Shown here: piece by piece, positions 12,355 to 32,000 of the stretch
Numbering within the stretch: position 1 is the first letter of the stretch
Layout: each line of letters starts with the position of its first letter
Origin: Candidatus Aminicenantes bacterium
GTDB taxonomy: Bacteria; Acidobacteriota; Aminicenantia; Aminicenantales; UBA4085
Length of the DNA stretch: 32,000 bases
Assembly (NCBI GenBank): GCA_017883285.1
Contig: JADGNV010000147.1
Coordinates: forward strand, 1 to 32,000
Reading direction: 5' to 3'
Translations under genes and position numbers: made by a program
Notes under the pieces: generated by a model
Seen by the model: the letters and a program-made list of their open reading frames with translations, nothing else
What the model was told of the DNA's origin: nothing
Databases searched by the model: none

Positions 12355-13527
12355 TTGCCCTTCTCCGGTGAAGATAATGGGTTCGCCGTGAAATGGCCCG
12401 GACCCGACGGGACCTTCAGCGAGCCGCCGGCCAAGCCCGAGGACACACCTATCGTCGTCTACAAAGGTGCGCCCGTCGCCGCCGCCTGGAAGGAGACGGC
12501 AGACTATTACCGGATCGAAAGCGGGACGTGCGTCCTCCGCGTCTACAAGTGTTGGTATTTCTACGGCCCCTCGCTCAAGAAGATCCTCGAAGGCTACACC
12601 CTGGTCACCGGCCGGCCGTTCTTCCCGCCCCGCTGGGGGCTGGAGTTCGGCGACGCCGACTGCTACAACAAGAAGGGCAAGACCCCCGACGTCATCGCCA
12701 AGGTCGCCGACGTCTACCGGGCGAACGACATGCCGGGCGGCTGGATCCTGCCCAACGACGGCTATGGCTGCGGCTATACCGACCTCGATTACACGGTCCA
12801 GGAGCTCCACAAGCGCGGCTTCTACACCGGCCTCTGGACCGAGAAGGGCCTCGACCGGATCGCGAACGAAGTCGGTAAGATCGGCACCCGGGTCATGAAG
12901 CTCGACGTGGCCTGGGTTGGCCCCGGATATCAGTTCGCCATGAACGGCATGCGGGACGCCTACGAGGGCATCGAGAAGAACAGCGACGCCCGCGGATTCG
13001 TGCTGCCCGTCTTCGTCAAGGCCAGGGCCATCATCCCCATGTATCCCGAGATGCTCCACGACCGGGAGAAGCCGAAAGACCCCGTGACCTTCGACATCTA
13101 TCCCTCGGGAAGATCGAGCTTCACTCTTTACGAGGACGACGGCGTAACGCAGGACTACCGGGCGGGGATGTATGCCCGGACGCTCGTCGAGGTCGACGCG
13201 CCGAAAACCATCGACGCGCCCCCGCCGCCGGTCGCGGCGGCGGCTACGACGGCCGGCCCCCAGATCGCGGTCAAGGTCGGCCCGGCCAAGGGGAAATACC
13301 GGGACATGCCCGCCGCGCGATCGTATGTCGTCGACGTCCACCTGCCCGTCCGGCCGGCCGGCGTCAAGCTCAACGACAAAGCGCTCCCCGGCCTGGACAA
13401 GAAAGAAGAATTCGATAAGGCCGCCGAAGGCTGGTACTTCGACGCCCGGGACCGCCGCGGCGTCCTCCATGTCAAGACAAAAGCCCTCCCCCGGGCCAGC
13501 GTCTTCACGGTGAGGATCGGCCTGTAG
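12355..13527 (+). CDS. glycoside hydrolase family 31 remnant (N-terminally truncated, with a large internal in-frame deletion; probably non-functional)
   Basis: YFYGPSLKKILEGYTLVTGRPFFPPRWGLEF and VMKLDVAWVG (nucleophile region) are followed almost directly by PVFVKARAIIPMYPE...LYEDDGVTQDY (C-terminal GH31 motifs). Length is 390 aa, against roughly 700-800 aa typical. TTG start. Confidence 0.7.
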   Translation: MPFSGEDNGFAVKWPGPDGTFSEPPAKPEDTPIVVYKGAPVAAAWKETADYYRIESGTCVLRVYKCWYFYGPSLKKILEGYTLVTGRPFFPPRWGLEFGDADCYNKKGKTPDVIAKVADVYRANDMPGGWILPNDGYGCGYTDLDYTVQELHKRGFYTGLWTEKGLDRIANEVGKIGTRVMKLDVAWVGPGYQFAMNGMRDAYEGIEKNSDARGFVLPVFVKARAIIPMYPEMLHDREKPKDPVTFDIYPSGRSSFTLYEDDGVTQDYRAGMYARTLVEVDAPKTIDAPPPPVAAAATTAGPQIAVKVGPAKGKYRDMPAARSYVVDVHLPVRPAGVKLNDKALPGLDKKEEFDKAAEGWYFDARDRRGVLHVKTKALPRASVFTVRIGL

Positions 13528-13568
13528 CGCGGCGTTCTCCGACGTCCCCGATTTCCTTGACGGGAGTC
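13472..13568 (+). repeat. copy 1 of a ~100-bp diverged direct repeat (GH31 3' end + stop + downstream -35-like box), paired with 31490..31592
   Basis: TCAAGAC...TTCACGGTGAGGATC..TGTAGC...ATTTCCTTGAC is shared with 31490-31592. By-eye alignment is roughly four-fifths identical over the first ~60 nt, with indels after the stop codon. Confidence 0.6.
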
Positions 13569-13583
13569 GGTTCGATTATTGCG

Positions 13584-13754
13584 TCTTCGTGGCGTCTAGA
13601 GAAGATGATCCGGCCGCTTCTCTCGTTGGATCGGCTGTCATTCCTGGAGCCCGAGGGCAAGGTCGGTTATCGCAGGGTGCGGGGCGGCGCGGAGCAGGAG
13701 TCTATCGCCTCTCAGACGGTGCGGGAGGTTTTTTGTCCCCACGTACCCTCGAGA
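13584..13754 (+). pseudogene. internal fragment of an IS91-family (Y2/HUH-type) transposase
   Basis: Translation SWRLEKMIRPLLSLDRLSFLEPEGKVGYRR...FCPHVPSR resembles the conserved ..RPxxSxxRLxY..GKVxY...HIPxKG.. region of this transposase family, as recalled. No N-terminal or catalytic part is present. Confidence 0.4.
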
Positions 13755-13766
13755 ACCGCTTTTCAT

Positions 13767-13786
13767 GGCTCTGCGTGGCTCTGCGT
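13767..13786 (+). repeat. perfect tandem duplication GGCTCTGCGT x2 abutting repeat copy A
   Basis: 13767-13776 is identical to 13777-13786. Confidence 0.9.
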
Positions 13787-13897
13787 GACTATTGACACGG
13801 CCATGCGGCCGGCCATATGCTTTCGGCATGGAGGGGCGGGCAGATTCATCGCCGCGAGGGGGAATTCGCCGTATCGCCGAAAAAGGAAATTCTTATC
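13787..13897 (+). repeat. copy A of a ~111-bp imperfect direct repeat (partner 23160..23271)
   Basis: GACTATTGACACGGCCATGCGGCCGGCCATA..CTT.CGGCATGGAGG...CATCGCCGCGAGGGGGAATTC.CC.TATCGC.GAAAAAGGAAA..C.TATC is shared between the copies. The first 31 nt are identical. Contains TTGACA-N18-TATGCT. Confidence 0.85.
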
Positions 13898-14441
13898 CAC
13901 TGATGCAAGAGATTATCTGCCAGATTTGGATGCAATCAGAAATCTAATTTTTTGGTATCTCTCCGACTTCGGGTCAGGGCCTCAAATTTCAAGAAAAGAG
14001 GCTGAAAAGTTATTGGATGACGGCTTAACAACAGTTGGCAAAAAGGGGAAAACCATTTTTATCTCATATGCAAGAGAGGGTGAGAAAAAAGCAGTTGAGG
14101 TATATGATGCACTCATTGATAGAGGGCATATTCCATGGATGGACAAAAAAGCGCTAGTCGCAGGACAGGATTGGAAACTTAAAATACGTAAAGCTATTGA
14201 ACCGTCACAGTATTTTATCGCATTAATGTCCGAACAGTCTGTGACCAAAAGGGGCTTTGTCCAAAAAGAACTTCGTTTTGCTCTAAATGTTCTCGGGGAG
14301 ATTCCTCCTGGCCAAATATATTTTATACCTGTGCGCCTTGAAGACTGTGATGTCCCAGATGCTATAAGGAGTTCGCATTGGGTCGATTTACGGAGAATAG
14401 ATGATTATGAGCAGCTATTTCGAGCAGTTGAGTATGAATAG
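13803..14441 (+). CDS. TIR-domain protein (start uncertain: ATG 13803, TTG 13926 or TTG 14013)
   Basis: The C-terminal ~140 aa, KTIFISYAREGEKKAVEVYDAL...WMDKKALVAGQDW...FVQKELRFAL...IPVRLEDC, fits a bacterial TIR domain including the conserved Glu (14268-14270). The ORF is open back to 13557 through GC-rich repeat DNA. Confidence 0.8.
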   Translation: MRPAICFRHGGAGRFIAARGNSPYRRKRKFLSTDARDYLPDLDAIRNLIFWYLSDFGSGPQISRKEAEKLLDDGLTTVGKKGKTIFISYAREGEKKAVEVYDALIDRGHIPWMDKKALVAGQDWKLKIRKAIEPSQYFIALMSEQSVTKRGFVQKELRFALNVLGEIPPGQIYFIPVRLEDCDVPDAIRSSHWVDLRRIDDYEQLFRAVEYE

Positions 14442-14522
14442 ATCAAACAATGACATAACCATTTTCTGCACCTGACCGGTGTTCCGCTGCGCTCCACACC
14501 AGCTAGGTGAGAAATACGTTAG

Positions 14523-15113
14523 ATGACGAGAGGTTGTGCTCCCATGCTGATTGACGAGTTCCAAAGAATAAAGACATCTCATCAAGAAGCGCTAAAGAAG
14601 ACGGCTGCTCGCGTAGTGCTTGGCCCTTCCGTCATGCGGGTGTTTGCAGCTGGGACCCGAGACGCCCTCTTGCCCGTATTGGCCGATGTCAAAATAGAGG
14701 CCATTCGTCAAATCTGGACCCAAGAGGATTTCTCGGTTTGGTTCGACGCAAACGTCGAAGGTGTCGTGCGGGTGATCTCCCGGAAAAATCGTGACAACCC
14801 CCGGATTTCGCCCGGAACGAAGTGGGGCCATTCCACCAAGATCATGGCGCTCTTGATCCGGGAGTTGGTTCTCAACTCAAGGTACTTCACTGACACAGAG
14901 GTCGAGCGGGTGAGCTCGTTTCTATATGTGCCCATTGACCGGATCGTCATGGAACGGCTGCGAAAGCTCAAGATCAATCTGCCCTTCTCGAGAATCCGGG
15001 AGATCGACACGAGGGCAAAGTTCTATGAAGTTCAAGAGATATTGGGACGTGCGGCGGCTGAATGTGGTGTGCCCAGGGTGTGGTTTGACGACAACTGGGG
15101 TGACCGGCAGTGA
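14523..15113 (+). CDS. hypothetical protein (196 aa), no recognisable domain
   Basis: Clean ORF with coding-like composition. Alternative start ATG 14544 (MLIDEF). Conserved-looking patches are KWGHSTKIMALLIRELV, YVPIDRIVMERL and VWFDDNWG. Confidence 0.6.
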   Translation: MTRGCAPMLIDEFQRIKTSHQEALKKTAARVVLGPSVMRVFAAGTRDALLPVLADVKIEAIRQIWTQEDFSVWFDANVEGVVRVISRKNRDNPRISPGTKWGHSTKIMALLIRELVLNSRYFTDTEVERVSSFLYVPIDRIVMERLRKLKINLPFSRIREIDTRAKFYEVQEILGRAAAECGVPRVWFDDNWGDRQ

Positions 15114-15219
15114 TAAAATCGTCATCTAACCCGCGCTTCCAGGCGACCGCCAACCAGCGGTGCTTCGCTTGCTGGTCGTTGGCCCCTAATGCTCCACGTT
15201 GGGCGTCTGAATAACGCTC

Positions 15220-18168
15220 GTGAGTAAGTCGAAGGAAGAGCCAACAAGGAGTCCGATCTTGCAAACGTATTCCAAACAGGAGGCACGCGAGCACGTCTCG
15301 CGCTTGGTGGAGTCGTTTCAGAAGGTTGAAGCGACCCTCGACAAGGCGCCAGAAGCGCAGATCGAGAACGACTACATCCGGCCACTCTTCCGTTATTTAA
15401 ATTGGCGAACCGAAGGCGCTGATCTTCGCATGTCTGAGCGTGAGGTGGTGCTGGTCGAAACCGACCGGCAAAGGAAACGCCCGGACTATCGCTTTCAGTT
15501 GAACGGGCAACACCTGTTCTTCATGGATGCAAAGAGGGTCAAGTACAGCATGTACAATCCGCGGTGGCAGTGGCAGGTGTACCGGTATGCCTACTCGACG
15601 CGCAATAACCCCGCGCCACGTAAGGTGGACTTCGGTGTTCTGACTGACTTTCAGGAGTTCATTCTTCTCGACTGCACCTTCGAGGCGAAGGAGCCTGAAG
15701 CTGTCAATAACTTCCGCGTGCTCGACTGGCGCTACCCGGATTACGTTGCCCAGTTCGACCGACTCTGGGACATCTTCGAGCGTAACAATGTGCTGGCGGC
15801 CAGCGAAGACCGGAAAAGCGGGCTGTGGGCGTGCTATCTGACACCCAAACAAGCCAAAGCTAACCGCGTTGCTCCTGACGAAGGTTTTCTCGACAAACTC
15901 GACAACGACGAGGACGGCTGGCGGGTGCGGTTGGCCAAAGATATGAAGAAGTGCAGCCCCGACCTTACCGGGGAGGTCATCACTGCCGCTGTACAACTCC
16001 TTATTGACCGGCTGGTGTTTATCAAAGTCTTGTCCGACCGGGATATTGACGACGACTATCTTGCCAAACTGGCCGAGTGCATCGAGGCGAATGGTCTGGA
16101 GCAAAGGAACCAAGGGTGGTTCGGCGCCGCGAAACCATTGTTTGATCGGCTGAAGCGTTTCTACAACGGCAGCATATTCGCCCCACGGCCCGAACTGGAG
16201 GCGGTGGTAACGTCCAACCGCGTCGTGCGCGACATCATCCGGGAACTCGACCCCAATCACTCGCCCTATGATTTCAGCGTTCTGCCGGTCGAAATCCTGG
16301 GCACGATTTACGAACGATTTCTCGGCAAGGTTGTCCGCACTACGGAACAGCGGGTCAAAATCGAGGATAAGCCCGAAGTCCGCAAAGCCGGTGGCGTTTA
16401 TTACACCCCGCAATACATCGTCCGCTACATTGTCGAGCAGACTGTTGGCAAGCTGTTCGACGACTGCAAGACGCCCGACGACGTGGCCCTATTGAAAATC
16501 CTCGACCCGGCATGCGGCTCCGGCAGTTTCCTCATCGGGGTTTACGACGCTCTGATCGAGTGGCATAAGTCCTACTACGCGGAGAAAACCAAGCCCGATC
16601 GGAAAGCAGCCTACCGTGATGCCGACGGCGACATCCGGCTTACAGCCAAGCTCAAACGCCAAATCCTGCTCAACAACATCTTCGGCGTAGACATAGACCA
16701 GCAGGCCGTCGAAGTCACGCGGTTCTCACTGTCGTTGAAAGCGTTGGAAGACACGCGCAAGGACGAACTCGAGGAGGAGCGGAATCTGTTCAAGGAAACG
16801 GTCCTACCCGACCTCAAGGACAATATTGTCTGCGGCAACTCACTCATTGGCACAGACATTCTGGAGGGGCAACTGTTCGCGCCAGAGGAAGAGCTGAAGC
16901 TAAACCCGATGAACTACAAAGACCGTTTCCCTAATATCTTCGAGGATGAAGGCTTCGATGCTATTCTCGGAAATCCACCATACTTGTACAGCGCAGGCCA
17001 AGAGCATAAGGTGTATTTCGAGTCGCACTACAAGCTTTCGGAGTACCAGACTGATTTCTATGTATACTTCATCGAACGGTCAATCCAGATACTAAAGAGT
17101 GCCGGTCGCATGGGCATGATTGTTTCGGACTCATGGGTCAAAGGGAAGTACTTCACGAAGCTTCGAGAGCACCTGCTGCGGCAGACCCGGCTTGAAAGCG
17201 TCACCGTTTTCGACTACGCACCATTTCATGGTGCGACTATTGAGAATTCCATTATCGTCCTTCAAAAGACTCCACCGAGAGAAACGCTGACAATCCGCAA
17301 GTTCAGTACGCCAAACAAGTTGGTCGACATCAACATCCTGAAAGTCGAGGGCTGCTTGACGAGGGGGTTCATCGACATTCACCACTCTGATGCGAATTCG
17401 CAGGTAATCACACGACTTGAGAGGAACAGCCTTCCATTGAGTAGCTTCTGCAAGCTAAACCGGGGCGTTCACGCGTATCGGACTGACGGCTACGGCAAGA
17501 GCAAGTTTTTAAAAGGCCCACAGACGAAACGAGACAAAGACGAGCAGTCGTATCATTCCAGAAGCAAGTTAGATTCGACTTACTTCCCTGAAGTAAAGGG
17601 GAAGCATCTTGGCCGGTATTCTTACATGTGGGATGGGACGTACATTTCCTATGGAGACTGGTTGGCCGAGCCGCGGACATCTGACTTTTTCTTCAACCCG
17701 AAGCTCGCAATCAGGAAAATCATCGCGCCAAGATTGGTCTGCACATTTATCAGGGAGCACACAATTCTCGATCAGTCCATTTACGTTGCAGTCCGAGCAA
17801 CGAAAGAGCCACCGAATCTGCTCTTTCTTCTGGGCATTCTAACTTCATCCGTTGGAGGTTGGTACATAAAGGCCAAGCATGGCATCTACGATACGCTGTA
17901 TCCGTGGTTCACAAAGGAGCAGTTAGCGCATTTTCCTATCCCCGCCATGCACTTCGTGAAGGAAGCCGATGAAATTCGTCACCAAAGGCTGGTGGACTTG
18001 GTGGAACAGATGTTGGCGTCGAAGCAGGCATGGGCGGCGTCGCAGACGGAGAAGGACAAGACCTACTACAACGACAAGTGCAAGGCATTGGACAAGCAGA
18101 TTGACGCACAGGTGTACGAGTTGTACGATCTGACGGCTAAAGAAATCGCCATCGTGGAAGAAAAATGA
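15220..18168 (+). CDS. Type IIG restriction-modification enzyme (Eco57I/TaqI-family N6-adenine methyltransferase fused to an N-terminal PD-(D/E)xK nuclease and a C-terminal TRD)
   Basis: PDY (15481-15489)...FMDAKR (D at 15526-15528, K at 15532-15534). GGVYYTP. Motif I DPACGSGSFL (from 16504). Motif IV GNPPY (16969-16983). TaqI_C-like C-terminus and YELYDLTAKEIAIVEE tail. GTG start at 15220, or TTG at 15259 preceded by AAGGAG 7 nt upstream. Confidence 0.85.
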   Translation: MSKSKEEPTRSPILQTYSKQEAREHVSRLVESFQKVEATLDKAPEAQIENDYIRPLFRYLNWRTEGADLRMSEREVVLVETDRQRKRPDYRFQLNGQHLFFMDAKRVKYSMYNPRWQWQVYRYAYSTRNNPAPRKVDFGVLTDFQEFILLDCTFEAKEPEAVNNFRVLDWRYPDYVAQFDRLWDIFERNNVLAASEDRKSGLWACYLTPKQAKANRVAPDEGFLDKLDNDEDGWRVRLAKDMKKCSPDLTGEVITAAVQLLIDRLVFIKVLSDRDIDDDYLAKLAECIEANGLEQRNQGWFGAAKPLFDRLKRFYNGSIFAPRPELEAVVTSNRVVRDIIRELDPNHSPYDFSVLPVEILGTIYERFLGKVVRTTEQRVKIEDKPEVRKAGGVYYTPQYIVRYIVEQTVGKLFDDCKTPDDVALLKILDPACGSGSFLIGVYDALIEWHKSYYAEKTKPDRKAAYRDADGDIRLTAKLKRQILLNNIFGVDIDQQAVEVTRFSLSLKALEDTRKDELEEERNLFKETVLPDLKDNIVCGNSLIGTDILEGQLFAPEEELKLNPMNYKDRFPNIFEDEGFDAILGNPPYLYSAGQEHKVYFESHYKLSEYQTDFYVYFIERSIQILKSAGRMGMIVSDSWVKGKYFTKLREHLLRQTRLESVTVFDYAPFHGATIENSIIVLQKTPPRETLTIRKFSTPNKLVDINILKVEGCLTRGFIDIHHSDANSQVITRLERNSLPLSSFCKLNRGVHAYRTDGYGKSKFLKGPQTKRDKDEQSYHSRSKLDSTYFPEVKGKHLGRYSYMWDGTYISYGDWLAEPRTSDFFFNPKLAIRKIIAPRLVCTFIREHTILDQSIYVAVRATKEPPNLLFLLGILTSSVGGWYIKAKHGIYDTLYPWFTKEQLAHFPIPAMHFVKEADEIRHQRLVDLVEQMLASKQAWAASQTEKDKTYYNDKCKALDKQIDAQVYELYDLTAKEIAIVEEK

Positions 18169-21101
18169 TGCTGAGGACGACGCCCAACAACCGGGTTAAG
18201 CACGATCTCACAAAGCGCGGCGGTTTAGCAGCAGTGTTTGCTGGAAAGAAAGATAATATGAACTCTTTGAAAATATTGGCTGGTGGTGACAGTGATGGTG
18301 CTAGATCAAATGCACGAGGAAAATTGTTTGAAAAAGTCTCTGCGGACGTGCTCAGACAAAATGGTTATGATATCGACAAGCACCAACTCAATGTTACCTA
18401 CGCTGGCATGGAGATTGATATCGAAGGCAAGGCGCGAATTACCGGAATCCCTCTGTATGCTGAGTGCAAATGTTATTCTACCAATGTCGATTGTGAGAAG
18501 CTGCAGACATTCTTTGGCAAATATATGACAAGGTGGCTCAAGAACTCCAAGGCCCAAGGCCTGTTTCTTGCCCTCCCCGGTATTAACAGCTCCGCAATGG
18601 GATTTTATCGCGACAACTGCGAATCGAATCAACAAATTACTCTTCGCCTGCTTCAAGAGCCTGACGTTTTGGACGCTCTCGTTAACTCAAACACTGTTGC
18701 TAGTCCTGAGTCATTCCAGCATCACATCGAATTGGACAGCGGTATACCCGGCGATTGTGTCCTGATCTGTAGCGATAAAGGTTTCTTTTGGTTGCAGTAT
18801 ATTGTTCCGCTTGGTTCGGGGATCGCGAAGGCCATTCAGATCTTCGATTCACGGGGCAATGCTATCTCTGATAATGAGTCGATCGACTACCTCATCCATC
18901 TGATGCCTGAACTGCAGCCATTTAAGGTACTACGAACAACAGCAGGCTCTGGCAGGAAGACGACCCCTCAGCCTGAGATAGCAGATGATGTTGTTGAAGT
19001 TCGAGGTAGCTCTGCATGCTTTGAATATCAGTTTCCTGCAGCCCCGGAGTTCTTTGTTGGGCGGGAAAAGCTCCTTGATGAGGTACAACTTTTTTTTGCG
19101 CAAGTTACGCGTCGGGAGACTTCAAGTCGTGGAATTCTTCTGGAGGCAAATTCGGGGTGGGGAAAGAGCTCGCTCGTATTGGCGGCGGTGGACGCCCTAA
19201 ACCAATCGGGCCACTACGCCCTAGCTTTCGATTCCCGTTCAGCGTCATCTCCCTATTTTGTGATGAGTGCAGTAGAGCACGTTTTAAACAAATTTGGAGA
19301 TTTCCATGGTTTAATTAAGAACCGACCAGTATTGGGAGGTTTTGAAGGGGCCTCTAATGCACTGCTTCAGATAGGGAAGGAACTGCAGGGTGGCAATAAA
19401 TTGCTTGTCGTCTTCTTTGATCAGTTCGAAAACGTCTTTCACTTATTGGATGTGCTAAAACGACTTGAACAGTTGTGTCTGAAAGTGGCAGATGCTAGAA
19501 CAAATGTTATTCTCGGATTTTCGTGGAAAACAGATTTAGTTGGCCTCACCCGAGACTTCCCATATCGATTGCGAGATACAATTATAAATGCATGCCATAC
19601 TATCCATCTGCCGCCATTTTCAGAAGCTGAGACAAATGCGTTACTGGATAGATTGGCATCAGAACTTCATGCCAAGCTCCGCAAAGACCTTCGTTTTCTG
19701 CTCTCTGAGAGCTCTCAAGGCTATCCTTGGCTTCTGAAAAAACTGTGCGCGCATGTGAAGAGTCAGCGGCTGACCGGCGTAGTTCAATCGGAAATAGTAC
19801 GCACGTTTATGAATGTCGAGCAGTTGTTTCTTGAAGATCTGCAAGGGTTAACAACTGCGCAAGATGAAGCATTAAAACGAACTGCGAAGCTTGCGCCTGT
19901 AAACATTGGGGATATCGGAGAAGAATTCGGTCCGGAGGTTATTCAATCTTTAGTTGACCGAAGACTTATTGTCAAAGTGGGTAGCAAATATGATATCTAT
20001 TGGGATATTTTCCGCGATTATCTCAACACCGGGAGATTGCCTGTCGAAGAAGTCTATCTGATACGAGCGCAAGTGGGAAGCATCATGAAGGCGCTCTCGA
20101 TTCTGAGGGAAAATCCCGAAGGTATTGGCGTCGCCGACTTCAAGACTAAAGCTGGATTATCAGACGGGGCATTTTTTAATGTCATGCGTGATTTGCGACT
20201 ATTGCAACTCGCTCAAATCAGAAAAGATATACTTGTTTTATCACTTCCCCATGCAACTGATGAGGCAACGATGATCTCTGGCGTACGAGACCGCCTGAAA
20301 GATCGTCTTCCTCGAAATAGGTGTGTGCATCACGTGCTGCGCGTGCTTAATGATGAGGGCGAAGTAGATCTCTCTAAACTGTCTCATATTCTGAAGTTAG
20401 AGTTCCCGTATATTTCTGCTGTGAAACGAACTTGGGAAACATATGCTCGAGTTCTTGCGACCTGGCTTGATGTTTCCGACCTTGCCATCCTGGACGGCTC
20501 AACATCGAAGCTTCTAAAACATGAAGCCGGAGCCCAAGTCCGAGAGCGCTCTTTGACTTTCGCTCGGCGCCGTTCAGGGATCGCGGTCCCAATAATCCAC
20601 TTCTCTCCGATTATTCAGGTGGCTACGCGACTGGTATCCGCTGTTCAGCGTGGCGCGCCTGTTGATTGGTCTGGAATACGTAGGAGTACTGTTTACAAGG
20701 CTCTCTCTGTTCTTGAAGATCTCGCGCTCATCTCGCGCAAATTACAGGTAATTTATGTCCATCCTGAGTGTCATTTCTTTGCGCTGGATGCATCTCGCCG
20801 AACACAAATTGCGCGTAATGCCGTCTCAAAGTGGCAAGTCTTTTCTGAATTTGTCAGCATTCTTACTGAACATTCGTCGAGGCTTCTATCACACAAAGAG
20901 CTTGCTAAACTTCTCGTAAAGAGAAGTGGTGCCAACTGGAAGACCTCCACGGCGGAGACAAATGTCAAAATCATGCTCGATTGGGCCAGGCACTTGGGTC
21001 TGGCAGTTGGGCCACATGCCCACAGCGCTCGTGGCCAATTTAAGGCTTCATCCGAAAAGCAAGAAGAGCTGCTGTTGTTTGATAACGATAACAAACCGTG
21101 A
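18165..21101 (+). CDS. Mrr-type restriction-endonuclease-fold domain fused to a P-loop (STAND/AAA-like) NTPase with a long uncharacterised C-terminal region
   Basis: ATG 18165 overlaps the upstream TGA (ATGA). Mrr_cat-like GKLFEKVSADVLRQNGYDI...GMEIDIEGK...LYAECKCY (AECK at 18459-18470). Walker A ANSGWGKS (19146-19169). Walker B LLVVFFDQFE (D at 19419-19421). Alternative start ATG 18258. Confidence 0.8.
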   Translation: MMLRTTPNNRVKHDLTKRGGLAAVFAGKKDNMNSLKILAGGDSDGARSNARGKLFEKVSADVLRQNGYDIDKHQLNVTYAGMEIDIEGKARITGIPLYAECKCYSTNVDCEKLQTFFGKYMTRWLKNSKAQGLFLALPGINSSAMGFYRDNCESNQQITLRLLQEPDVLDALVNSNTVASPESFQHHIELDSGIPGDCVLICSDKGFFWLQYIVPLGSGIAKAIQIFDSRGNAISDNESIDYLIHLMPELQPFKVLRTTAGSGRKTTPQPEIADDVVEVRGSSACFEYQFPAAPEFFVGREKLLDEVQLFFAQVTRRETSSRGILLEANSGWGKSSLVLAAVDALNQSGHYALAFDSRSASSPYFVMSAVEHVLNKFGDFHGLIKNRPVLGGFEGASNALLQIGKELQGGNKLLVVFFDQFENVFHLLDVLKRLEQLCLKVADARTNVILGFSWKTDLVGLTRDFPYRLRDTIINACHTIHLPPFSEAETNALLDRLASELHAKLRKDLRFLLSESSQGYPWLLKKLCAHVKSQRLTGVVQSEIVRTFMNVEQLFLEDLQGLTTAQDEALKRTAKLAPVNIGDIGEEFGPEVIQSLVDRRLIVKVGSKYDIYWDIFRDYLNTGRLPVEEVYLIRAQVGSIMKALSILRENPEGIGVADFKTKAGLSDGAFFNVMRDLRLLQLAQIRKDILVLSLPHATDEATMISGVRDRLKDRLPRNRCVHHVLRVLNDEGEVDLSKLSHILKLEFPYISAVKRTWETYARVLATWLDVSDLAILDGSTSKLLKHEAGAQVRERSLTFARRRSGIAVPIIHFSPIIQVATRLVSAVQRGAPVDWSGIRRSTVYKALSVLEDLALISRKLQVIYVHPECHFFALDASRRTQIARNAVSKWQVFSEFVSILTEHSSRLLSHKELAKLLVKRSGANWKTSTAETNVKIMLDWARHLGLAVGPHAHSARGQFKASSEKQEELLLFDNDNKP

Positions 21102-21109
21102 AGCTGAGA

Positions 21110-21133
21110 TTCAGGACATGGGATCGAACCATA
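21110..21133 (-). other. tRNA 3'-end-like fragment (T-arm plus acceptor strand), possible att-site relic
   Basis: The minus strand reads TATGG-TTCGATC-CCATG-TCCTGAA: a 5-bp T-stem, a 7-nt TTCGANN loop and a 7-nt acceptor-like tail. No complementary 5' half lies nearby, so this is not a tRNA gene. Confidence 0.35.
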
Positions 21134-21321
21134 ACGTCGAGCTTAAGGCGTGCCCTTAGGAGCTCTATGGTAAAAGATGTGGGGATACAGCTAAAATGAT
21201 AAACGATGGATGAATAGCAAGAAGAAGGGAAAGACTTCTTATATCGAAATCGACAGTCTATATTTCCGGAATTATAAAGATCGCATAAACGATGTAAGGC
21301 TGTTGCATCCCGGTGAGGATT

Positions 21322-22326
21322 ATGTCGTTAATAAAACAGCGAAGTGAGCAGCATCTTATCGACGCGGACGGTGAGAGGCTCCTCCGGTCTCGGCTTCCGC
21401 GCTACTGGGTACTCCGAGAGTACCGTCCCGACTACGGTTTAGACTTCGCCCTCGAAATATTTCGGGAACCGATTGGGCCAGCAAAAAAGCACGCGACGTA
21501 CGAGACACTCGGCGAGCACATATTCATCCAGTTGAAGAGCGTTGTTTCCGCGACTGCGTCACCGTTGAAGATATATGGCCGCCATAATGTTGAGAAGAAA
21601 CGGGAGTGGCTGAACAAGAATGAACTTGTTGGGACGATGGACACTATCCGTTTCTCAATTGAGATCAAAGAACTTGTCACCGTCCAACGGATGGGTGTTG
21701 GTGTACCAGTGTTGCTGGTCATTGCGGACAATTCCAAGGCATGCTGCCATTTTGTGTGCCTCAACGACTACATCGACAAGATATTGGTTCCTCGCCACGA
21801 CGATTATACTGTAAAGAAAACGCGTACAATTCATGTTCCGATAGCAAATGAGGTTGGGGATGAACTTGTCGGTTGCAATGCACTGCGCTGGTACGCAAAG
21901 CGATCAAAACTCTATTCGGCGTTCCAGCGGTTCGTATTCCAAGCGGCCGAACTGGACCAGGCCTGGAACACCGACGAATTCTTTCCCATGGCGCGCTACT
22001 TCGCTTCCAGGATTGCGGGCTACGATTTTTGGGATGACACGAAGATGTGGAAAATCATCGCTTATTATGGCGAGGCCATCCACAGATTTATTAGGAGCGG
22101 ACACCCGAATTTGATGAAATCCAACATGGCATCAATTAAAAGCGCTGCCAGCGGTGATGAAGATGATGCGCGTCAAATTACTGAGTACTTAAACCGACTT
22201 GACGTGAGGGAACTATGGAGATGTCTTGCCGGGTTGCCGAGGATTTATGAAGATGTTTGCCGCGAATGGCTCCTTCCAACATGCATGGGATATGAAAGTT
22301 CTTATCCGGTTGTAATAAATGATTGA
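21322..22326 (+). CDS. DUF4365-like (PD-(D/E)xK nuclease fold) N-terminal domain protein with an unknown C-terminal domain
   Basis: SEQHLIDADGERLLRSRLPRYWVLREYRPDYGLDFALEIF...GEHIFIQLKS matches the DUF4365 pattern (DYGxD..E...QxK). ATG 21322 is preceded by GAGGA. The track ORF starts at GTG 21313. Confidence 0.7.
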   Translation: MSLIKQRSEQHLIDADGERLLRSRLPRYWVLREYRPDYGLDFALEIFREPIGPAKKHATYETLGEHIFIQLKSVVSATASPLKIYGRHNVEKKREWLNKNELVGTMDTIRFSIEIKELVTVQRMGVGVPVLLVIADNSKACCHFVCLNDYIDKILVPRHDDYTVKKTRTIHVPIANEVGDELVGCNALRWYAKRSKLYSAFQRFVFQAAELDQAWNTDEFFPMARYFASRIAGYDFWDDTKMWKIIAYYGEAIHRFIRSGHPNLMKSNMASIKSAASGDEDDARQITEYLNRLDVRELWRCLAGLPRIYEDVCREWLLPTCMGYESSYPVVIND

Positions 22327-22428
22327 CATGCGTGTGCAATCAATGCGTGGGCTCGTTCGCTTATCGTGCTGGTAAAGCGCGCCGTTCACTAGAAGAAATT
22401 AAAACTAAAGGCAAAGCCAAATAATAGA

Positions 22429-22617
22429 ATCCCCACGAGTCCGATAGTATTCAAATGGCGTGGATATTGGTTCTTCTTTTCACAGGAAAAAACGAAGCCT
22501 CGTGTACATGTATACTGTTTGGACGGGGAGGCCAAATTTTGGCTTGAACGCAAGGTTGAACTGACCCGAATCATCGTCTCAAGCAGGCTCCGGACGAATG
22601 CTTCGCCGGAACGATAA
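22429..22617 (+). pseudogene. DUF4160-family remnant lacking a canonical start codon
   Basis: Translation IPTSPIVFKWRGYWFFFSQEKTKPRVHVYCLDGEAKFWLERKVEL... resembles MPT...GFRFFFYSNEGNEPPHIHVEKGG.EAKFWLEP.V. The MPT position reads ATC-CCC-ACG, and no in-frame ATG/GTG/TTG exists back to the TAG at 22390. The C-terminus diverges early. Confidence 0.5.
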
Positions 22618-22717
22618 AGCCGACGTCCTTGGCTGTCAATCATAGAATCTTGACATGTTTTCGATCCGAGGATAATCTCGGCTGAAATGAAAGGCAACGG
22701 ACGAATTTAGCCCGATT

Positions 22718-23035
22718 TTAAAGAGCAAATGCGTATTCCGACGATCTTGGGTTCGACAGTTTCAAGCGCACCGACCAGGGATAATCCGCATGTTCCCAGA
22801 CCTTCTCGATCACGGCCAAAACGTCCTTGGTGTAATGACGTTTCCGAGTTCGAGGGATTTTCGGAAGAGGGGGGGCGGCATCCTCCATCAGGTTGAGTTG
22901 GGCGATGGCGTACTGGCGATGATAGCCCGTCGCGGCGCATAGTTCGTCCCAGATTTTGGTCTTCATTTTCTTGGGGGCTTTCCGATAGCGTTTCCACGTT
23001 GCTTCCTTGAGGGCCTTGCGCATCTGTAAATCCAT
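22718..23035 (-). pseudogene. N-terminal (HTH) fragment of a DDE-type transposase, truncated after ~95 aa
   Basis: MDLQMRKALKEATWKRYRKAPKKMKTKIWDELCAATGYHRQYAIAQL...VIEKVWEHADYPWSVRLK resembles the N-terminus of integrase-core (rve) transposases, as recalled. No catalytic domain follows. Confidence 0.45.
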
Positions 23036-23159
23036 GCTCCAACCTTCTTCCCAACAAAGGTCAGAGTAAATAGAGCTCCTCGACCGCGTCCAGCGATAGT
23101 AAGATTTTTAAATGGCAAGACATATGTCCTTTCAGTAAGATTATAGATGGCGCGATTCG

Positions 23160-23271
23160 GACTATTGACACGGCCATGCGGCCGGCCATACACTTCCGGC
23201 ATGGAGGAAGCGGGTGGGCTCATCGCCGCGAGGGGGGAATTCACCTATCGCGGAAAAAGGAAAATCCTATC
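23160..23271 (+). repeat. copy B of the ~111-bp imperfect direct repeat (partner 13787..13897)
   Basis: Same orientation as copy A. Substitutions plus paired single-nt indels keep the overall length nearly equal. Contains TTGACA-N18-TACACT and points into the 3' end of brnA (antisense). Confidence 0.85.
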
Positions 23272-23338
23272 ATTCGAACGTATGCTTCACAGGCGTCGCG
23301 AAGCCGCATCCTTGCGCAGCAGCCAATGGCTGGACGAA

Positions 23339-23593
23339 CTATGCGCCTTGCCGCAGCTCTTCACGAAGAACGCGACGAAGTGTTTCTTCGATAGGCTCTC
23401 CGCTTTTTTCGATGTACTCGTGGAGTGCCTTGTTGATCATAGCTTGATAACTGCCTCCCCCCCGATTCTCAACGGTGTTTCGAAACCATTCAAGGATTTC
23501 ATTGTCGATGCGAATGGTTATACGGGTTTTCCCGGGAGGAGATGTAATCACAGCGCCCCTCTTGCCCTTGCTGAAGTCGTATTCTTTCTTCAT
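23339..23593 (-). CDS. brnA: BrnA-type (CopG/RHH-like) antitoxin
   Basis: MKKEYDFSKGKRGAV...TRITIRIDNEILEWFRNTVENRGGGSYQAMINKALHEYI is typical BrnA. Its ATG (23593..23591) overlaps the brnT stop (ATGA). Confidence 0.8.
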   Translation of the reverse strand: MKKEYDFSKGKRGAVITSPPGKTRITIRIDNEILEWFRNTVENRGGGSYQAMINKALHEYIEKSGEPIEETLRRVLREELRQGA

Positions 23594-23859
23594 CGTTGTT
23601 CTCCGTACTGTGCGCGCTCCCGTGCGGTTGCTTTTCTTGCAGAAATGATCCGGATGCTCTCGCCTCGCCACGTATAGACGACCACAAGGATTCTCCCGAG
23701 ATCATCAAGCCCCATAGTGATGTGCCTTTATTCTTGTGAAGATCGTTCTTCTATCGTAATGGCATATTCATCAGAGAGGACTTCGACAGCCTCAGCAAAC
23801 GAAACCCCATGCTTTTTGCGGTTCCCCCGTGCTTTTTCCGGATCCCAATCAAACATCAT
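23590..23859 (-). pseudogene. brnT: BrnT-type toxin interrupted by an in-frame TAA at codon 44
   Basis: MMFDWDPEKARGNRKKHGVSFAEAVEVLSDEYAITIEERSSQE-TAA(23730..23728)-RHITMGLDDLGRILVVVYTWRGESIRIISARKATARERAQY. Both halves match the BrnT consensus in one frame. Confidence 0.75.
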
Positions 23860-23864
23860 GATCT

Positions 23865-23893
23865 AGTATATGTACAATTGTGCACATTGTCAA
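23865..23893 (-). promoter_or_regulatory. brnTA promoter candidate with an embedded palindrome; the near-leaderless geometry is notable
   Basis: The minus strand reads TTGACA (23893..23888), 17 nt, TATACT (23870..23865), then only 5 nt to the ATG at 23859. The spacer contains the perfect palindrome ACAATTGT. Confidence 0.5.
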
Positions 23894-24128
23894 GCGCTTT
23901 CCGTCGTCCAGCGGCTATTAGATGGTCCTCGAATACCCAGACGACACGGTGGCCTGCTCCAAGCGGACGCAATAACAGTTCGTGAGCGGAGTTGCCCGTC
24001 CGCAAAAAACCCCTCATGCGTCCTCTGAAGGTCCTCAAAAATGGTTTTTGCTTCGAGCCCGGGCGTCGTTCCCACTCGTCGCTATAGAAGACGTGGTCGC
24101 TGAGGGGGATTGGGACCAGACGAAACAG

Positions 24129-24157
24129 TTGACAAAATAGTATCATATTAGTACTAT
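24129..24157 (+). promoter_or_regulatory. hicAB promoter candidate with an inverted-repeat operator; the near-leaderless geometry is notable
   Basis: TTGACA (24129-24134), 17 nt, TACTAT (24152-24157), then 4 nt to the ATG at 24162. AATAGTA (24136-24142) and TACTATT (24152-24158) form a perfect 7-bp inverted repeat. Confidence 0.5.
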
Positions 24158-24161
24158 TAAG

Positions 24162-24718: not shown

Positions 24719-25753
24719 CTATTTCGCGCCCGCCAGCATCCCGCAGCCGGCATTGATGTCCTGCCCCCCGCTATAGCGCCGCACCACGGGCATCTTCAGG
24801 TGCTTTCGCAACGCATCCCGGAACGTATCCAGCTCATCGGAGGTGGGCGGGTGGAAGCGCCCGGTGGCGTCGTTCACATCGATCAGATCCAGAGTGATCG
24901 GCAGGCCCCGAACCATCTCCGCCAGTTGGATGGCATCCTCTTCCCGCGTGTTGAACCCGGAAATCATCGTCCAGGCCAATACCACGCGCTGCCTCGAAGC
25001 TCGATGGTATTCCCAGATCGACTCCATCAGCTCCGGCAGCGGATAGGCCTTCTCCACCGGCATGAGCCCGCCCCGCCGGGACGGATCCGCGCTCACCAGC
25101 GACACCACCAGGCGGAAAGGCAGCCGGTCGGCCGTGAATCGCCGGATGCCCGGCACCACGCCCGCCGTCGAGAGGCTGATGGATTTTGACGAAATCGCCA
25201 TCCCGCACGGCTCGCTCAGGATCCGGGCCGCACGCACCACGGCCTCATAATTCAGCATCGGTTCGCCCATGCCCATGAACACCACTCCCCGGACGGGATG
25301 CCGCGAATCCGCCGCGACACGGATGACCTGATCGACCATTTCCCAAGTCGAAAGGTTGCGTCCAAAACCCATTCGCCCCGTCGCGCAAAATTCGCAGCCC
25401 AGCGCGCATCCCACCTGCGTGCTCACGCAGACGATGAGCTTTTCGTCTCCGGACCGGTGCACGAGCGGGATCCGCACTGCCTCGAACGGTTCCGGCCCAT
25501 CGCCTTGGAAAAGATACTTGGCGAATCCATCCCGCGCCGAAACCGCCTTGTCTCGCTGGATCAGCCGCGGCAGGCGCACCTCTCTCCGCACGCGCGCCAG
25601 CAGCTTATCCGATACCTCCGAAAGGCTCTCGGGAAACTCGTCGCGCCTCACCACCGCCGCCTGCAGCCGTCGGGCCAGACGCAAGGAAACGCCGAGCGGC
25701 GCCAGTCCAGCATGAAGCTCGGAAGCGGTTGAGTCTTTGAACAGGGGCGGCAT
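24719..25753 (-). CDS. rlmN: RlmN/Cfr-family radical SAM rRNA/tRNA adenine C2-methyltransferase
   Basis: Start MPPLFKDS (ATG 25753..25751). Radical SAM cluster motif GCALGCEFCATG, GMGEP, and C-terminal ...GQDINAGCGML. 344 aa. The upstream part of the track ORF is an Arg/Pro-rich artefact. Confidence 0.8.
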   Translation of the reverse strand: MPPLFKDSTASELHAGLAPLGVSLRLARRLQAAVVRRDEFPESLSEVSDKLLARVRREVRLPRLIQRDKAVSARDGFAKYLFQGDGPEPFEAVRIPLVHRSGDEKLIVCVSTQVGCALGCEFCATGRMGFGRNLSTWEMVDQVIRVAADSRHPVRGVVFMGMGEPMLNYEAVVRAARILSEPCGMAISSKSISLSTAGVVPGIRRFTADRLPFRLVVSLVSADPSRRGGLMPVEKAYPLPELMESIWEYHRASRQRVVLAWTMISGFNTREEDAIQLAEMVRGLPITLDLIDVNDATGRFHPPTSDELDTFRDALRKHLKMPVVRRYSGGQDINAGCGMLAGAK

Positions 25754-25779
25754 GGGAGAAGAGAAAAGCCCGGACGGAA

Positions 25780-26256
25780 TCAACCAAACAATTTTTTGGT
25801 CAGCGCGGCCAGGCGGACGGCGTATTTTTCGCAGCTTTTGAGCGAGCGCTCGTCGGGCCGCCCCACAGCCACCGGGCCATAGTGGTCGCCTTGGTGGTCG
25901 CCCTGGACGATCATGCCGTGGATCATCAGCGATTTGAGGATGTCGAGGACCGTCGTCTCGTTGCCGCCGGCCAGGTTGGCGGACGACGTGAACGCGCCGC
26001 CGACCTTGCCCTTGAGCTTGCCGTGGTGCTTGACGCTCTCGTCGATGAGCTTCTTGAGGGGCCAGGCCATCGTGCCGTAATAGGTCGGCGATCCGAAGAC
26101 CAGGCAATCATAGGCCAAAAGATCGGCGGGCAGGACGTCTTGGACTTTCTTCAAATCGGCCGGCAGGCCTTTTTCGTTCAGGACCTCGGCGATGCGGACG
26201 GCCATCTTCTCGGTGTTATGGGAATGGCTGTAATAGCAAACAAGCGCTTTGGGCAT
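25780..26256 (-). CDS. flavodoxin-family protein (WrbA/NAD(P)H-quinone-oxidoreductase-like)
   Basis: MPKALVCYYSHSHNTEKMA...LVFGSPTYYGTMAWPLKKLID... is a typical flavodoxin-like fold signature. Confidence 0.8.
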   Translation of the reverse strand: MPKALVCYYSHSHNTEKMAVRIAEVLNEKGLPADLKKVQDVLPADLLAYDCLVFGSPTYYGTMAWPLKKLIDESVKHHGKLKGKVGGAFTSSANLAGGNETTVLDILKSLMIHGMIVQGDHQGDHYGPVAVGRPDERSLKSCEKYAVRLAALTKKLFG

Positions 26257-27984: not shown

Positions 27985-28254
27985 TCAATCCTTCTTCGCG
28001 TCCTTCTCTTTGCCGGCGTCCTTCGCCACGCGGGCCAGCCGCTCGATCTCCTTGTCCACGAGGTCGTTGACCTGGCCCACGACCGCGCCCTGGGTGTCGA
28101 TCAGGATCGACCCTTCGTCGATCATCTCCTGGATCTTGTCCTCGATGAGACTCACCCGTTCGAACCGCTCCTTGATCGCCGTGTCCACGTGGCCCGCGTC
28201 GACCACGGTCTTCCCGCCGGGGATAAGAATTTGCTTTTTCGCTCTTCGCGACAT
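27985..28254 (-). CDS. hypothetical 89-aa charged protein
   Basis: ATG 28254 is preceded by AGGAAGGA. Sequence begins MSRRAKKQILIPGGKTVVDAGHVDTAIKERFE... and has a Lys/Asp/Glu-rich tail. No domain recognised. Confidence 0.55.
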   Translation of the reverse strand: MSRRAKKQILIPGGKTVVDAGHVDTAIKERFERVSLIEDKIQEMIDEGSILIDTQGAVVGQVNDLVDKEIERLARVAKDAGKEKDAKKD

Positions 28255-28325
28255 TCCTTCCTAAAAAGATCGGCATCAACACTTCCCCTCGCATATAGAA
28301 GGTAATCCTTGCCGCGGATCGATGT

Positions 28326-28451
28326 CGGCTTCTCGGCCACAAACGTCAGTTTGAGGTGGTCGATGATCCGGTCCACGGCGGCATATTCCGTGATGAAGGC
28401 CACGACCTTCATCGTGCCCCCGCACTTGGGACAGATCGTCGGGTCGACCTC
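28326..28451 (-). pseudogene. IS91-family transposase C-terminal fragment (zinc-ribbon part)
   Basis: EVDPTICPKCGGTMKVVAFITEYAAVDRIIDHLKL matches the recalled ..YEVDPLxCPKCGGxMKIIAFIE..VIxKILxHLGL tail. Confidence 0.6.
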
Positions 28452-28452
28452 G

Positions 28453-28614
28453 CACATCCCCGACAAAGGCCAAGTCATGGTTCGGTACTATAGCCTGTAC
28501 GCCAACGCCCACCGGGGGAAGGTCAAGAAGGCGAGTATGAGTCCGTCAGCGTTGCGGATGGCCGAGGAGGATATCCGACGCATCCCCTCCAAGGGTTGGG
28601 CGGAGATGATCAGG
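28453..28614 (+). pseudogene. IS91-family transposase fragment immediately preceding the zinc ribbon, on the opposite strand (inverted segment)
   Basis: HIPDKGQVMVRYYSLYANAHRGKVKK...SKGWAEMIR matches HIPxKGxxxxRYYGxYSNxxRGxxKK....WAxLIxKVY. It starts 1 nt from the EVDP fragment, head to head. Confidence 0.6.
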
Positions 28615-31489: not shown

Positions 31490-31592
31490 TCAAGACCAGG
31501 GCCCTGCCCCTGGCCGGCGGTTTCACGGTGAGGATCAGTTTGTAGCATCGGCTCCCCCGCCCCCCATTTCCTCAATTTCCTTGACAGGAATC
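31490..31592 (+). repeat. copy 2 of the GH31 3'-end / promoter repeat: relic of a GH31 gene end upstream of hppA
   Basis: Reads FKTRALPLAGGFTVRISL-stop, against VKTKALPRASVFTVRIGL-stop at 13470-13527. ATTTCCTTGAC follows in both copies. Confidence 0.6.
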
Positions 31593-31609
31593 CGGAATAT
31601 CGCTATATA
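31581..31609 (+). promoter_or_regulatory. strong sigma70-like promoter candidate for hppA
   Basis: TTGACA (31581-31586), 17 nt, TATATA (31604-31609). GGAGG at 31626-31630 precedes the ATG at 31635. Confidence 0.6.
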
Positions 31610-31634
31610 GTCAAGCTAAATATACGGAGGCACC

Positions 31635-32000
31635 ATGAACATACTCGGTCTCGCCAGCCGTCACGGCCTGAGCGGCTTCGAGCAAATCGCCATCCTGGGC
31701 GTCGTTACGACCGCCTTCATCAGCCTGCTGTACGCCTGGCTCCTGCGCAACAACGTCATGAAAAAGGACAAGGGCACGGCTAAAATGCAGGAAGTCTGGA
31801 ACGCGATCCGCGTCGGCGCGGACAGCTATCTGAGCCGCCAGCTGAAAACGATCCTGCCCGTCATCGGGGCCCTGACGTTCGTCCTGTTCATGAGCGTCTA
31901 CATCGTCCCGCCGAGCGCCGAGGCCACTCAGGAGTTCGGAGCCAGCGCCACGATCATCATCGCCATCGGCCGGACGCTGGCCTTCATCCTCGGCGCCACG
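31635..32000 (+). CDS. hppA: membrane-bound proton/sodium-translocating pyrophosphatase, N-terminal part (runs off the window)
   Basis: MNILGLASRHGLSGFEQIAILGVVTTAFISLLYAWLLRNNVMKKDKGTAKMQEVWNAIRVGADSYLSRQ is the typical HppA N-terminus. Confidence 0.85.
   Translation, partial: MNILGLASRHGLSGFEQIAILGVVTTAFISLLYAWLLRNNVMKKDKGTAKMQEVWNAIRVGADSYLSRQLKTILPVIGALTFVLFMSVYIVPPSAEATQEFGASATIIIAIGRTLAFILGAT

Follow-up and report, generated by a model that had tools for sequence, protein, structure and literature searches.

We analysed a 32,000-nucleotide stretch of DNA (the window), which a GTDB scan with its GH31 gene remnant placed in Candidatus Aminicenantes, and focused on a block of defence-type genes lying between two direct repeats, copy A (13787–13897) and copy B (23160–23271). 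The first-pass annotation had taken these repeats for 111-bp elements that delimit a horizontally acquired cassette, integrated or exchanged by recombination between them. The two repeats are present in the same orientation as described, with 86.7% identity overall, three single-base gaps and an identical initial 31 nt; a 31-mer search of the window (≤3 mismatches) returned copies A and B only, where shuffled sequences lead one to expect no match. Both copies belong to remnants of an insertion sequence (IS), which are listed below together with a third set of debris; L012 is a contig from another metagenome that carries a near-complete copy of the IS, and the transposase fragments (x1 to x3) were located by tblastn with the L012 TnpA and by a composite protein search.

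13605–13700, plus strand: transposase fragment x1 (Y2_Tnp), part of IS remnant A, 94.8% identical to L012 1338–1433
13697–13897, plus strand: non-coding 3' tail of IS remnant A, holding copy A, 87.6% identical to L012 1858–2049
23160–23271, plus strand: copy B, the last 112 nt of an IS91-family 3' tail, present as a solo end, 85.8% identical to L012 1942–2052
28220–28614, both strands: third set of IS91-family debris, with x2 on the plus strand and x3 plus a more distant tail type (copy C) on the minus strand (28452–28220)
28445–28614, plus strand: transposase fragment x2
28452–28327, minus strand: transposase fragment x3

The window holds the transposase as fragments only. A composite protein built by concatenating x1, x2 and x3 gives a continuous match to Y2_Tnp (PF04986) proteins, with 97% coverage and up to 83% identity. 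The L012 tnpA gene is split into two open reading frames (ORFs; 693–1247 and 1260–1835), and both halves match the NCBIfam model NF033538, 'IS91 family transposase' (E 1e-29 and 2e-16), each scoring below the full-length cut-off of the model because the gene is split. The tail in L012 sits directly after the tnpA stop codon: the ~215 nt following it match window 13697–13897 (87.6%), and the last 111 nt of that tail match window 23163–23274 (85.8%). Alignment of six tails from five contexts (A, B and C of the window, L012, L013 and L066) gives a common terminal motif, GAAAAAG(G/C)AAA(A/T)TC(C/T)TAT, immediately past which all six diverge into unrelated DNA.

From the L012 tail match and the terminus shared by the six tails, we conclude that the '111-bp element' is the end of an IS91-family 3' non-coding tail. 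Copies A and B are each the non-coding 3' terminus, on the oriIS side and downstream of tnpA, of a separate decayed IS of the IS91 family (HUH/Y2 rolling-circle transposase), and the two ISs point in the same direction. The composite match and the L012 matches to NF033538 identify the Y2 transposase of this family, and a defined oriIS end downstream of tnpA is common to independent copies. Assignment of the tail to the oriIS side follows the published layout of the IS91 family, which has distinct oriIS and terIS ends and makes no target duplication (PMC13181058).

The 111 bp are not a unit of their own. The homology of copy A to the IS tail begins at 13697, to the left of the proposed unit, the left edge of which is the truncation point of copy B and nothing more. 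IS remnant A as a whole spans 13605–13897, with ~424 bp gone internally and the entire 5' half gone; relative to the L012 tail, its tail carries a 10-nt tandem duplication at 13767–13786 (GGCTCTGCGT x2). A 33-nt partial inverted match to the repeat end at 28209–28241 is the end of the third, more distant tail. Rfam returned nothing on the whole window (gathering thresholds) or on 13.4–24.4 kb (E ≤ 1), and the idea that the repeat is a known RNA was rejected.

Within the third set of debris, x2 (rightward on the plus strand from 28445) and x3 (leftward on the minus strand from 28452) are joined head to head at 28445–28452. At the corresponding site of the relatives L001 and L002, x1 and x2 are colinear, and x1 there is 95.8% identical to window 13605–13699. 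The copy C type of tail (window 28220–28326) occurs three times within 6.7 kb of L067 (226–323, 3845–3937 and 6596–6695) and once in L013 (7206–7312), at a distance from the transposase gene. Such tails may be dispersed repeats, either solo ends or resembling a miniature inverted-repeat transposable element (MITE).

The genes that lie to the right of IS remnant A, up to and just past copy B, are the following.

13898–14441, plus strand: 5'-truncated TIR-domain gene (TIR_2, E 5.8e-25)
14544–15113, plus strand: 189-aa protein with no match in Pfam, NCBIfam or PADLOC
15220–18168, plus strand: type IIG restriction–modification (R-M) enzyme of the Eco57I/MmeI type with a TaqI_C specificity domain (Pfam; PADLOC REase_MTase_IIG, E 1.6e-142)
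18258–21101, plus strand: Mrr_cat nuclease plus STAND NTPase (nSTAND1), 947 aa (Pfam; the ORF is open upstream to 18165)
21313–22326, plus strand: DUF4365-domain protein (Pfam, E 1.6e-8)
22432–22617, plus strand: decayed DUF4160 remnant without a canonical start (Pfam, E 3.4e-4)
22718–23035, minus strand: 105-aa ORF with no match in Pfam or NCBIfam
23339–23859, minus strand: brnTA toxin–antitoxin module (brnA 23339–23593/23671; brnT 23590–23859)

The end of IS remnant A removes the first ~100 codons of the TIR gene, corresponding to an N-terminal domain of ~100–115 aa. In a full-database HMMER search with the translation from just past the IS end, the nearest homologs are 281–299 aa long (the best 59% identical). 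Because these full-length homologs align to the window only from their residue ~97–129 on, we regard the gene as truncated by the IS end. In full-length relatives (P0347, P0348 and others) the N-terminal domain of ~110 aa has a conserved RNxxAH motif and matches HEPN_RiboL-PSP weakly, below the threshold, which suggests a HEPN-TIR architecture that the window copy would have lost. Gene callers fuse the tnpA fragment, the non-coding IS tail and the TIR remnant into one ORF (13605–14441, with its ATG inside x1), and this chimera is recorded as the 278-aa protein P0346 in a public protein collection. By truncating the TIR gene, copy A intrudes into the block instead of marking the edge of an intact cassette. 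Of the five defence-type genes that had been annotated on the plus strand, four are intact and one, the TIR gene, lacks its 5' part.

The block is a mosaic, as had been proposed, of separately travelling single-gene defence modules (the truncated TIR gene, the 189-aa protein, the type IIG R-M enzyme, the Mrr-STAND NTPase and the DUF4365 protein), because the NTPase and 189-aa genes each occur elsewhere as lone modules in unrelated phyla. The 189-aa family has about 100 homologs across phyla; in L068–L071, which come from unrelated taxa, the gene stands alone, near integrase fragments, a DpnII/MboI fragment and antitoxin-like genes. Homologs of the NTPase are 941–964 aa long and occur in many phyla, the best relatives being 76–79% identical; the true start of the window gene lies at ~18258. 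At the DNA level the NTPase gene, and the gene only, is 80% identical to L062 and L063, and L062–L065 carry none of the other island genes. The Mrr_cat-STAND NTPase family (~945 aa) is found across bacteria and in an Asgard (Hodarchaeales) metagenome-assembled genome (MAG), and has no model in PADLOC 2.0. Its homolog lies beside an unrelated TIR protein in L062 (7725–11844) and beside hicAB and higB modules in L064 (8178–11850). A conserved TIR + NTPase pair, considered on account of the TIR gene upstream of the L062 NTPase homolog, was rejected: the TIR proteins share only a 30% local match.

Two multi-gene systems were considered for the block and rejected. A Thoeris system combines ThsB (TIR) with a ThsA effector; the island proteins gave only weak ThsB matches (E 0.0025) and no ThsA-like match. 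For BREX, the PglX models score far below the type IIG model (1.6e-142), and PglZ, BrxC and other partner genes are absent. Several smaller features of the first-pass annotation fared unevenly. The decayed DUF4160 gene has a Pfam match below the cut-off (21.2 versus 23 bits), and the supposed decayed transposase gene at 22718–23035 (minus strand) has no family match in Pfam or NCBIfam and was not confirmed. The tRNA-like fragment was found neither by ARAGORN nor by Rfam at E ≤ 1 (13.4–24.4 kb), and there is no integrase domain in the window, in agreement with the claim that no intact recombinase is present. At blastn sensitivity the island DNA has no match to plasmids and phages. Beyond copy B, brnA looks intact (BrnA_antitoxin, E 3.9e-11), and brnT is a pseudogene with one in-frame TAA where relatives have a sense codon (BrnT_toxin, E 1.1e-28 after removal of the stop).

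The composition of the block departs from that of the left core, as expected of foreign DNA. The left 12.3 kb have a G+C content of 0.645 and the GH31 remnant 0.65; in 100-bp windows G+C drops from 0.59 (13800–13899) to 0.40 (13900–13999), at the end of copy A (13897/13898). The gene-by-gene change described earlier is borne out by values of 0.41 for the TIR gene, 0.54 for the 189-aa gene, 0.53 for the type IIG gene, 0.47 for the NTPase gene and 0.49 for the DUF4365 gene, and the tetranucleotide distance to the left core rises 2–3 fold over 13–24 kb, so that the sliding-window checks that had been suggested both find a shift. The shift to AT-rich DNA does start right where copy A ends, but copy B is not its right-hand limit: low G+C runs on to ~24.4 kb (brnTA 0.50, the spacer 23867–24161 0.51, then hicA). 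To the right of a GC-rich radical-SAM and flavodoxin gene pair, G+C is low again at 26.3–31.6 kb (0.45–0.59). The composition jumps exactly at 13898 because the end of IS remnant A abuts the truncated TIR gene; the jump is the junction of GC-rich IS DNA with a broken AT-rich gene and no border of an intact cassette.

Relatives that lack the block bear directly on how it was gained or lost. The flavodoxin protein is encoded identically on contigs of several metagenomes and on the NCBI MAG contig L001, and blastn showed relatives to be 94–99% identical to the window on both flanks of the block. L001 and L002 are without window 12405–23986, with 40 bp of filler in its place, and L003 and L008 are without window 12547–24108; each deletion takes out brnTA and the two repeat copies along with most of the GH31 remnant. 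The block is thus absent from close relatives. The proposed search for an empty site found block-less alleles, yet their breakpoints lie outside both repeats and no repeat copy is kept; an allele that has just one repeat copy between GH31 remnant and brnA was not found among the relatives. These breakpoints (12405/23986 and 12547/24108) are not those of an island bounded by attachment (att) sites, and the window yielded neither the integrase or recombinase nor the tRNA target of such an island.

The same comparison revealed further variation to the right of the block. L001 and L007, unlike the window, have a 21-bp indel (CAAAGTTGCGGTCCGATCAAA) at window position 24108/24109, just upstream of the hicA promoter, and the interval from the Mur-ligase gene to hicA has at least three alleles among near-identical strains. 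The radical-SAM ORF (24719–26256, minus strand, 462 aa) overlaps the flavodoxin ORF; in relatives the radical-SAM call is 344 aa long (window ~24719–25753), making the long 462-aa ORF an upstream extension.

The block sits inside the wreck of a single gene. In the Aminicenantes MAG L016, a Mur-ligase-like gene is followed by an intact GH31 gene (756 aa), two small genes and hppA, and tblastn of the intact L016 GH31 protein against the window mapped five fragments (f1 to f5).

12355–13527, plus strand: GH31 pseudogene remnant, with f1, f2 and f3 joined in frame (tblastn; Pfam found DUF5110 only)
12394–12549, plus strand: f1, aa 76–127
12544–13002, plus strand: f2, aa 239–391
13003–13524, plus strand: f3, aa 595–756
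13528–13604, plus strand: diverged second copy of the post-GH31 sequence holding the hppA promoter (TTGAC-type −35 box); its partner is 31547–31620, directly upstream of hppA
23922–23990, plus strand: f4, aa 523–545, with a stop codon (also blastn to several relatives; the L001/L002 right breakpoint lies here by junction alignment)
31492–31542, plus strand: f5, aa 740–756, followed by the hppA promoter
31492–31635, plus strand: f5 plus the hppA promoter; hppA starts at 31636

ORF 12355–13527 has two internal deletions, each of them in frame. Fragment f4 is out of order, lying 10 kb downstream of f3, and the sequence of f5 is a duplicate of the f3 end. The f3 tail with the ~75 nt that follow it is ~81% identical to f5 plus promoter over a 57-nt core and 68% identical over 130 nt, and the two copies of the promoter region, of which the one at hppA is functional, differ about as much as orthologs of different species. 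The region at 12.4–31.6 kb is an old hotspot that has undergone insertion and deletion time and again. Nested insertions there shredded an ancestral GH31 gene between the Mur-ligase-like gene and hppA, and the AT-rich block is the most AT-rich layer of this hotspot. Neither IS91 tails nor IS91 transposase genes were found in the GH31 neighbourhoods of 48 related loci.

Taken together, the locus very probably consists of IS91-family ends and a mosaic of single-gene defence modules in an old indel hotspot, with a TIR gene cut by the end of IS remnant A, and we infer that the repeats mark transposon activity and are not recombination sites that delimit a cassette. IS remnant A ends against a TIR gene deprived of its first ~100 codons, and in the block-less strains the deletions have end points other than the repeats. 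Several observations weigh against this account. The window has no intact IS copy and no terIS end: none of its sequence matches L012 1–692, and the 5' parts of all window copies are deleted. Behaviour typical of the family can accordingly only be inferred for these remnants. The L012 tnpA gene is itself interrupted by a stop codon. The bases abutting the IS ends (CACT at copy A, ATTC at copy B and ATTT in L012) form no consistent tetranucleotide and differ from the published IS91-family targets (CTTG/GTTC/GTCC). Short hairpins are predicted in the tails, with DNA fold energies no better than those of shuffled sequences in three of the four tails; a structured hairpin was dropped as a candidate feature, as the folds lack significance and their stems are out of register with one another, and no covariation is claimed. 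Finally, exact 22–26-mers of the repeat had no match in GTDB representative genomes, one exact repeat-core pattern gave a single chance match in JGI metagenome contigs, and a degenerate repeat pattern gave none in IMG/VR. Because these searches gave no true match, the IS element is rare or diverged in the three collections.

How the defence genes and the IS ends came to lie together can be told in more than one way. That the 111-bp copies served as att-like or homologous recombination sites, with a cassette integrated or exchanged between them, is highly improbable. In its favour, the two repeats form a direct, same-orientation pair, the G+C shift begins exactly at the end of copy A, and homologous recombination between two IS copies is a known route to gain or loss of the intervening DNA. 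Against this stand the repeats' identity as IS91 3' ends, a left edge that is a mere truncation point of copy B, the interruption of the TIR gene by copy A, the continuation of AT-rich variable DNA (brnTA) past copy B, the lack of any integrase or tRNA, and block-less alleles that break outside both repeats, with no single-copy allele among them; the integration or exchange proposed in the first-pass annotation thus finds no footing. A plausible alternative, with a likelihood not far short of even, is that the island came first: the defence genes were already in the hotspot, IS91 copies landed there, one of them in the TIR gene, and deletions removed most of each IS together with the DNA left of IS remnant A. 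Ordinary events suffice for such a course (one insertion and two deletions for IS remnant A), and deletions are many at this locus, with two independent large ones in the relatives, two in-frame ones in the GH31 gene and the 21-bp indel. The third IS91 remnant at 28.2–28.6 kb also speaks for repeated hits by the family without linked cargo. Two features find no explanation in this course: a second, diverged copy of the GH31 tail with the hppA promoter adjoins IS remnant A on its terIS side, and both IS ends have the same orientation at the edges of the AT-rich block.

Both of those features are what one-ended rolling-circle transposition by an IS91-type element might produce, by capturing two tandem units of cargo plus IS, and we consider such a capture possible on balance, if on the unlikely side. 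One-ended transposition is documented, at 1–14% for IS91 and IS1294 (PMC13181058), and capture units would start at an arbitrary read-through point inside a gene and stop at the oriIS end. Unit 1 (~13003–13897) would comprise the C-terminal GH31 part and hppA promoter of a related donor followed by IS remnant A, and unit 2 (13898–23271), inserted beside the resident oriIS end of IS remnant A, would run from the truncated TIR gene through DUF4365 to the IS of copy B. Indeed, both IS ends point in the same direction, each closing a foreign segment on its right, and both segments open with a 5'-cut gene (GH31 at aa 595, TIR at ~aa 100). The GH31 tail and promoter on the terIS side of IS remnant A are ~68–81% identical to the resident copy, about a between-species distance, as expected for DNA from a related donor; the C-terminal part of GH31 is, however, more variable among species anyway, leaving a donor origin unproven. 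The variable same-strand genes on the oriIS side resemble ISCR1 regions (PMC6218425). Counting against capture, no IS91 tnpA or terIS lies between DUF4365 and tail B, where only the DUF4160 remnant and an unrelated ORF are found; the 5' half of IS remnant A is gone; and neither unit was found in a second genome. Since no IS91 body or terIS lies to the left of copy B and neither unit recurs in a second genome, we rate an earlier island only slightly more likely than capture.

Each of the two IS ends holds a promoter-like site that faces outward. A promoter scan found TTGACA-N18-TATGCT in copy A (13792–13821) and TTGACA-N18-TACACT in copy B (23165–23194), each with 10 of 12 matches. The pattern TTGACA-N18-TA(T/C)(A/G)CT is shared by A, B, L012 and L013, the L066 version is TTGACT/TATCAT, and TTGAC...-N18-TAnnnT is common to all six tails. 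By analogy with ISCR1, in which the variable region and the POUT promoters lie on the oriIS side (PMC6218425), the predicted outward sigma-70-like promoter of the IS tail may now drive the downstream same-strand genes. The sequence anatomy, with a same-orientation variable block beside oriIS and a promoter-like motif, fits a putative ISCR-type capture region. That an Aminicenantes IS91-family element acts in the manner of ISCR on immunity genes, by one-ended capture, by stacking units of cargo plus IS at the same oriIS-adjacent target and by expressing captured genes from the outward promoter, including the chimeric IS-TIR ORF (13605–14441), strikes us as a doubtful proposal.

PADLOC matches to the type IIG and TIR genes, Pfam matches to Mrr_cat and nSTAND1, and absence of the block from L001, L002, L003 and L008 make the region a typical defence island in a variable hotspot, and as it stands its biology is ordinary. 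Real novelty attaches to one reading only, in which an IS91-family element would capture and express defence genes in the manner of ISCR; this is possible but unlikely. The case does offer a lead to a potential role in shuffling anti-phage genes for IS91/ISCR-type capture, a process known chiefly from antibiotic-resistance genes. More generally, an island edged by direct repeats is not necessarily bounded by att sites; in this case the repeats are the ends of transposons, and one of these ends breaks a defence gene. As a case study, the locus also documents a defence hotspot of the uncultured phylum Aminicenantes for which public metagenomes contain several alleles.

With IS91, IS801 and IS1294 the element described here shares Y2_Tnp (PF04986) transposase fragments, the related L012 gene matching NF033538, and, like the IS91 family in general, it has a conserved non-coding 3' tail after tnpA with a sharply defined, oriIS-like terminus and no terminal inverted repeat was seen. 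It differs from the studied members in being present only as decayed remnants with no terIS found in the window, and in its host, Aminicenantes, which is far from their proteobacterial hosts. Some relatives differ further in gene content; in the Aminicenantes MAG L066 (1078–3714), two tyrosine-recombinase (Phage_integrase) genes precede the Y2_Tnp gene on the same strand.

The likeness to ISCR1 lies in a ~200-nt oriIS-side tail that is followed directly by a variable gene block, with all genes on the strand of the tail, and in a conserved, predicted outward sigma-70-like promoter motif within that tail. Unlike ISCR1, the cargo consists of defence genes and not resistance genes, the context of the integron 3' conserved segment (3'-CS) is lacking, and the match to the ISCR clade model is weaker than that to the IS91 model. 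The hotspot differs from defence islands at large in its position within a shredded GH31 gene that has a Mur-ligase-like (capsule-type) gene on one side and hppA on the other, and in having no integrase or tRNA anchor. It resembles them in the clustering of R-M, TIR and STAND-NTPase genes with toxin–antitoxin modules and transposon debris, in its foreign composition, and in the block's presence or absence among strains that are 94–99% identical.

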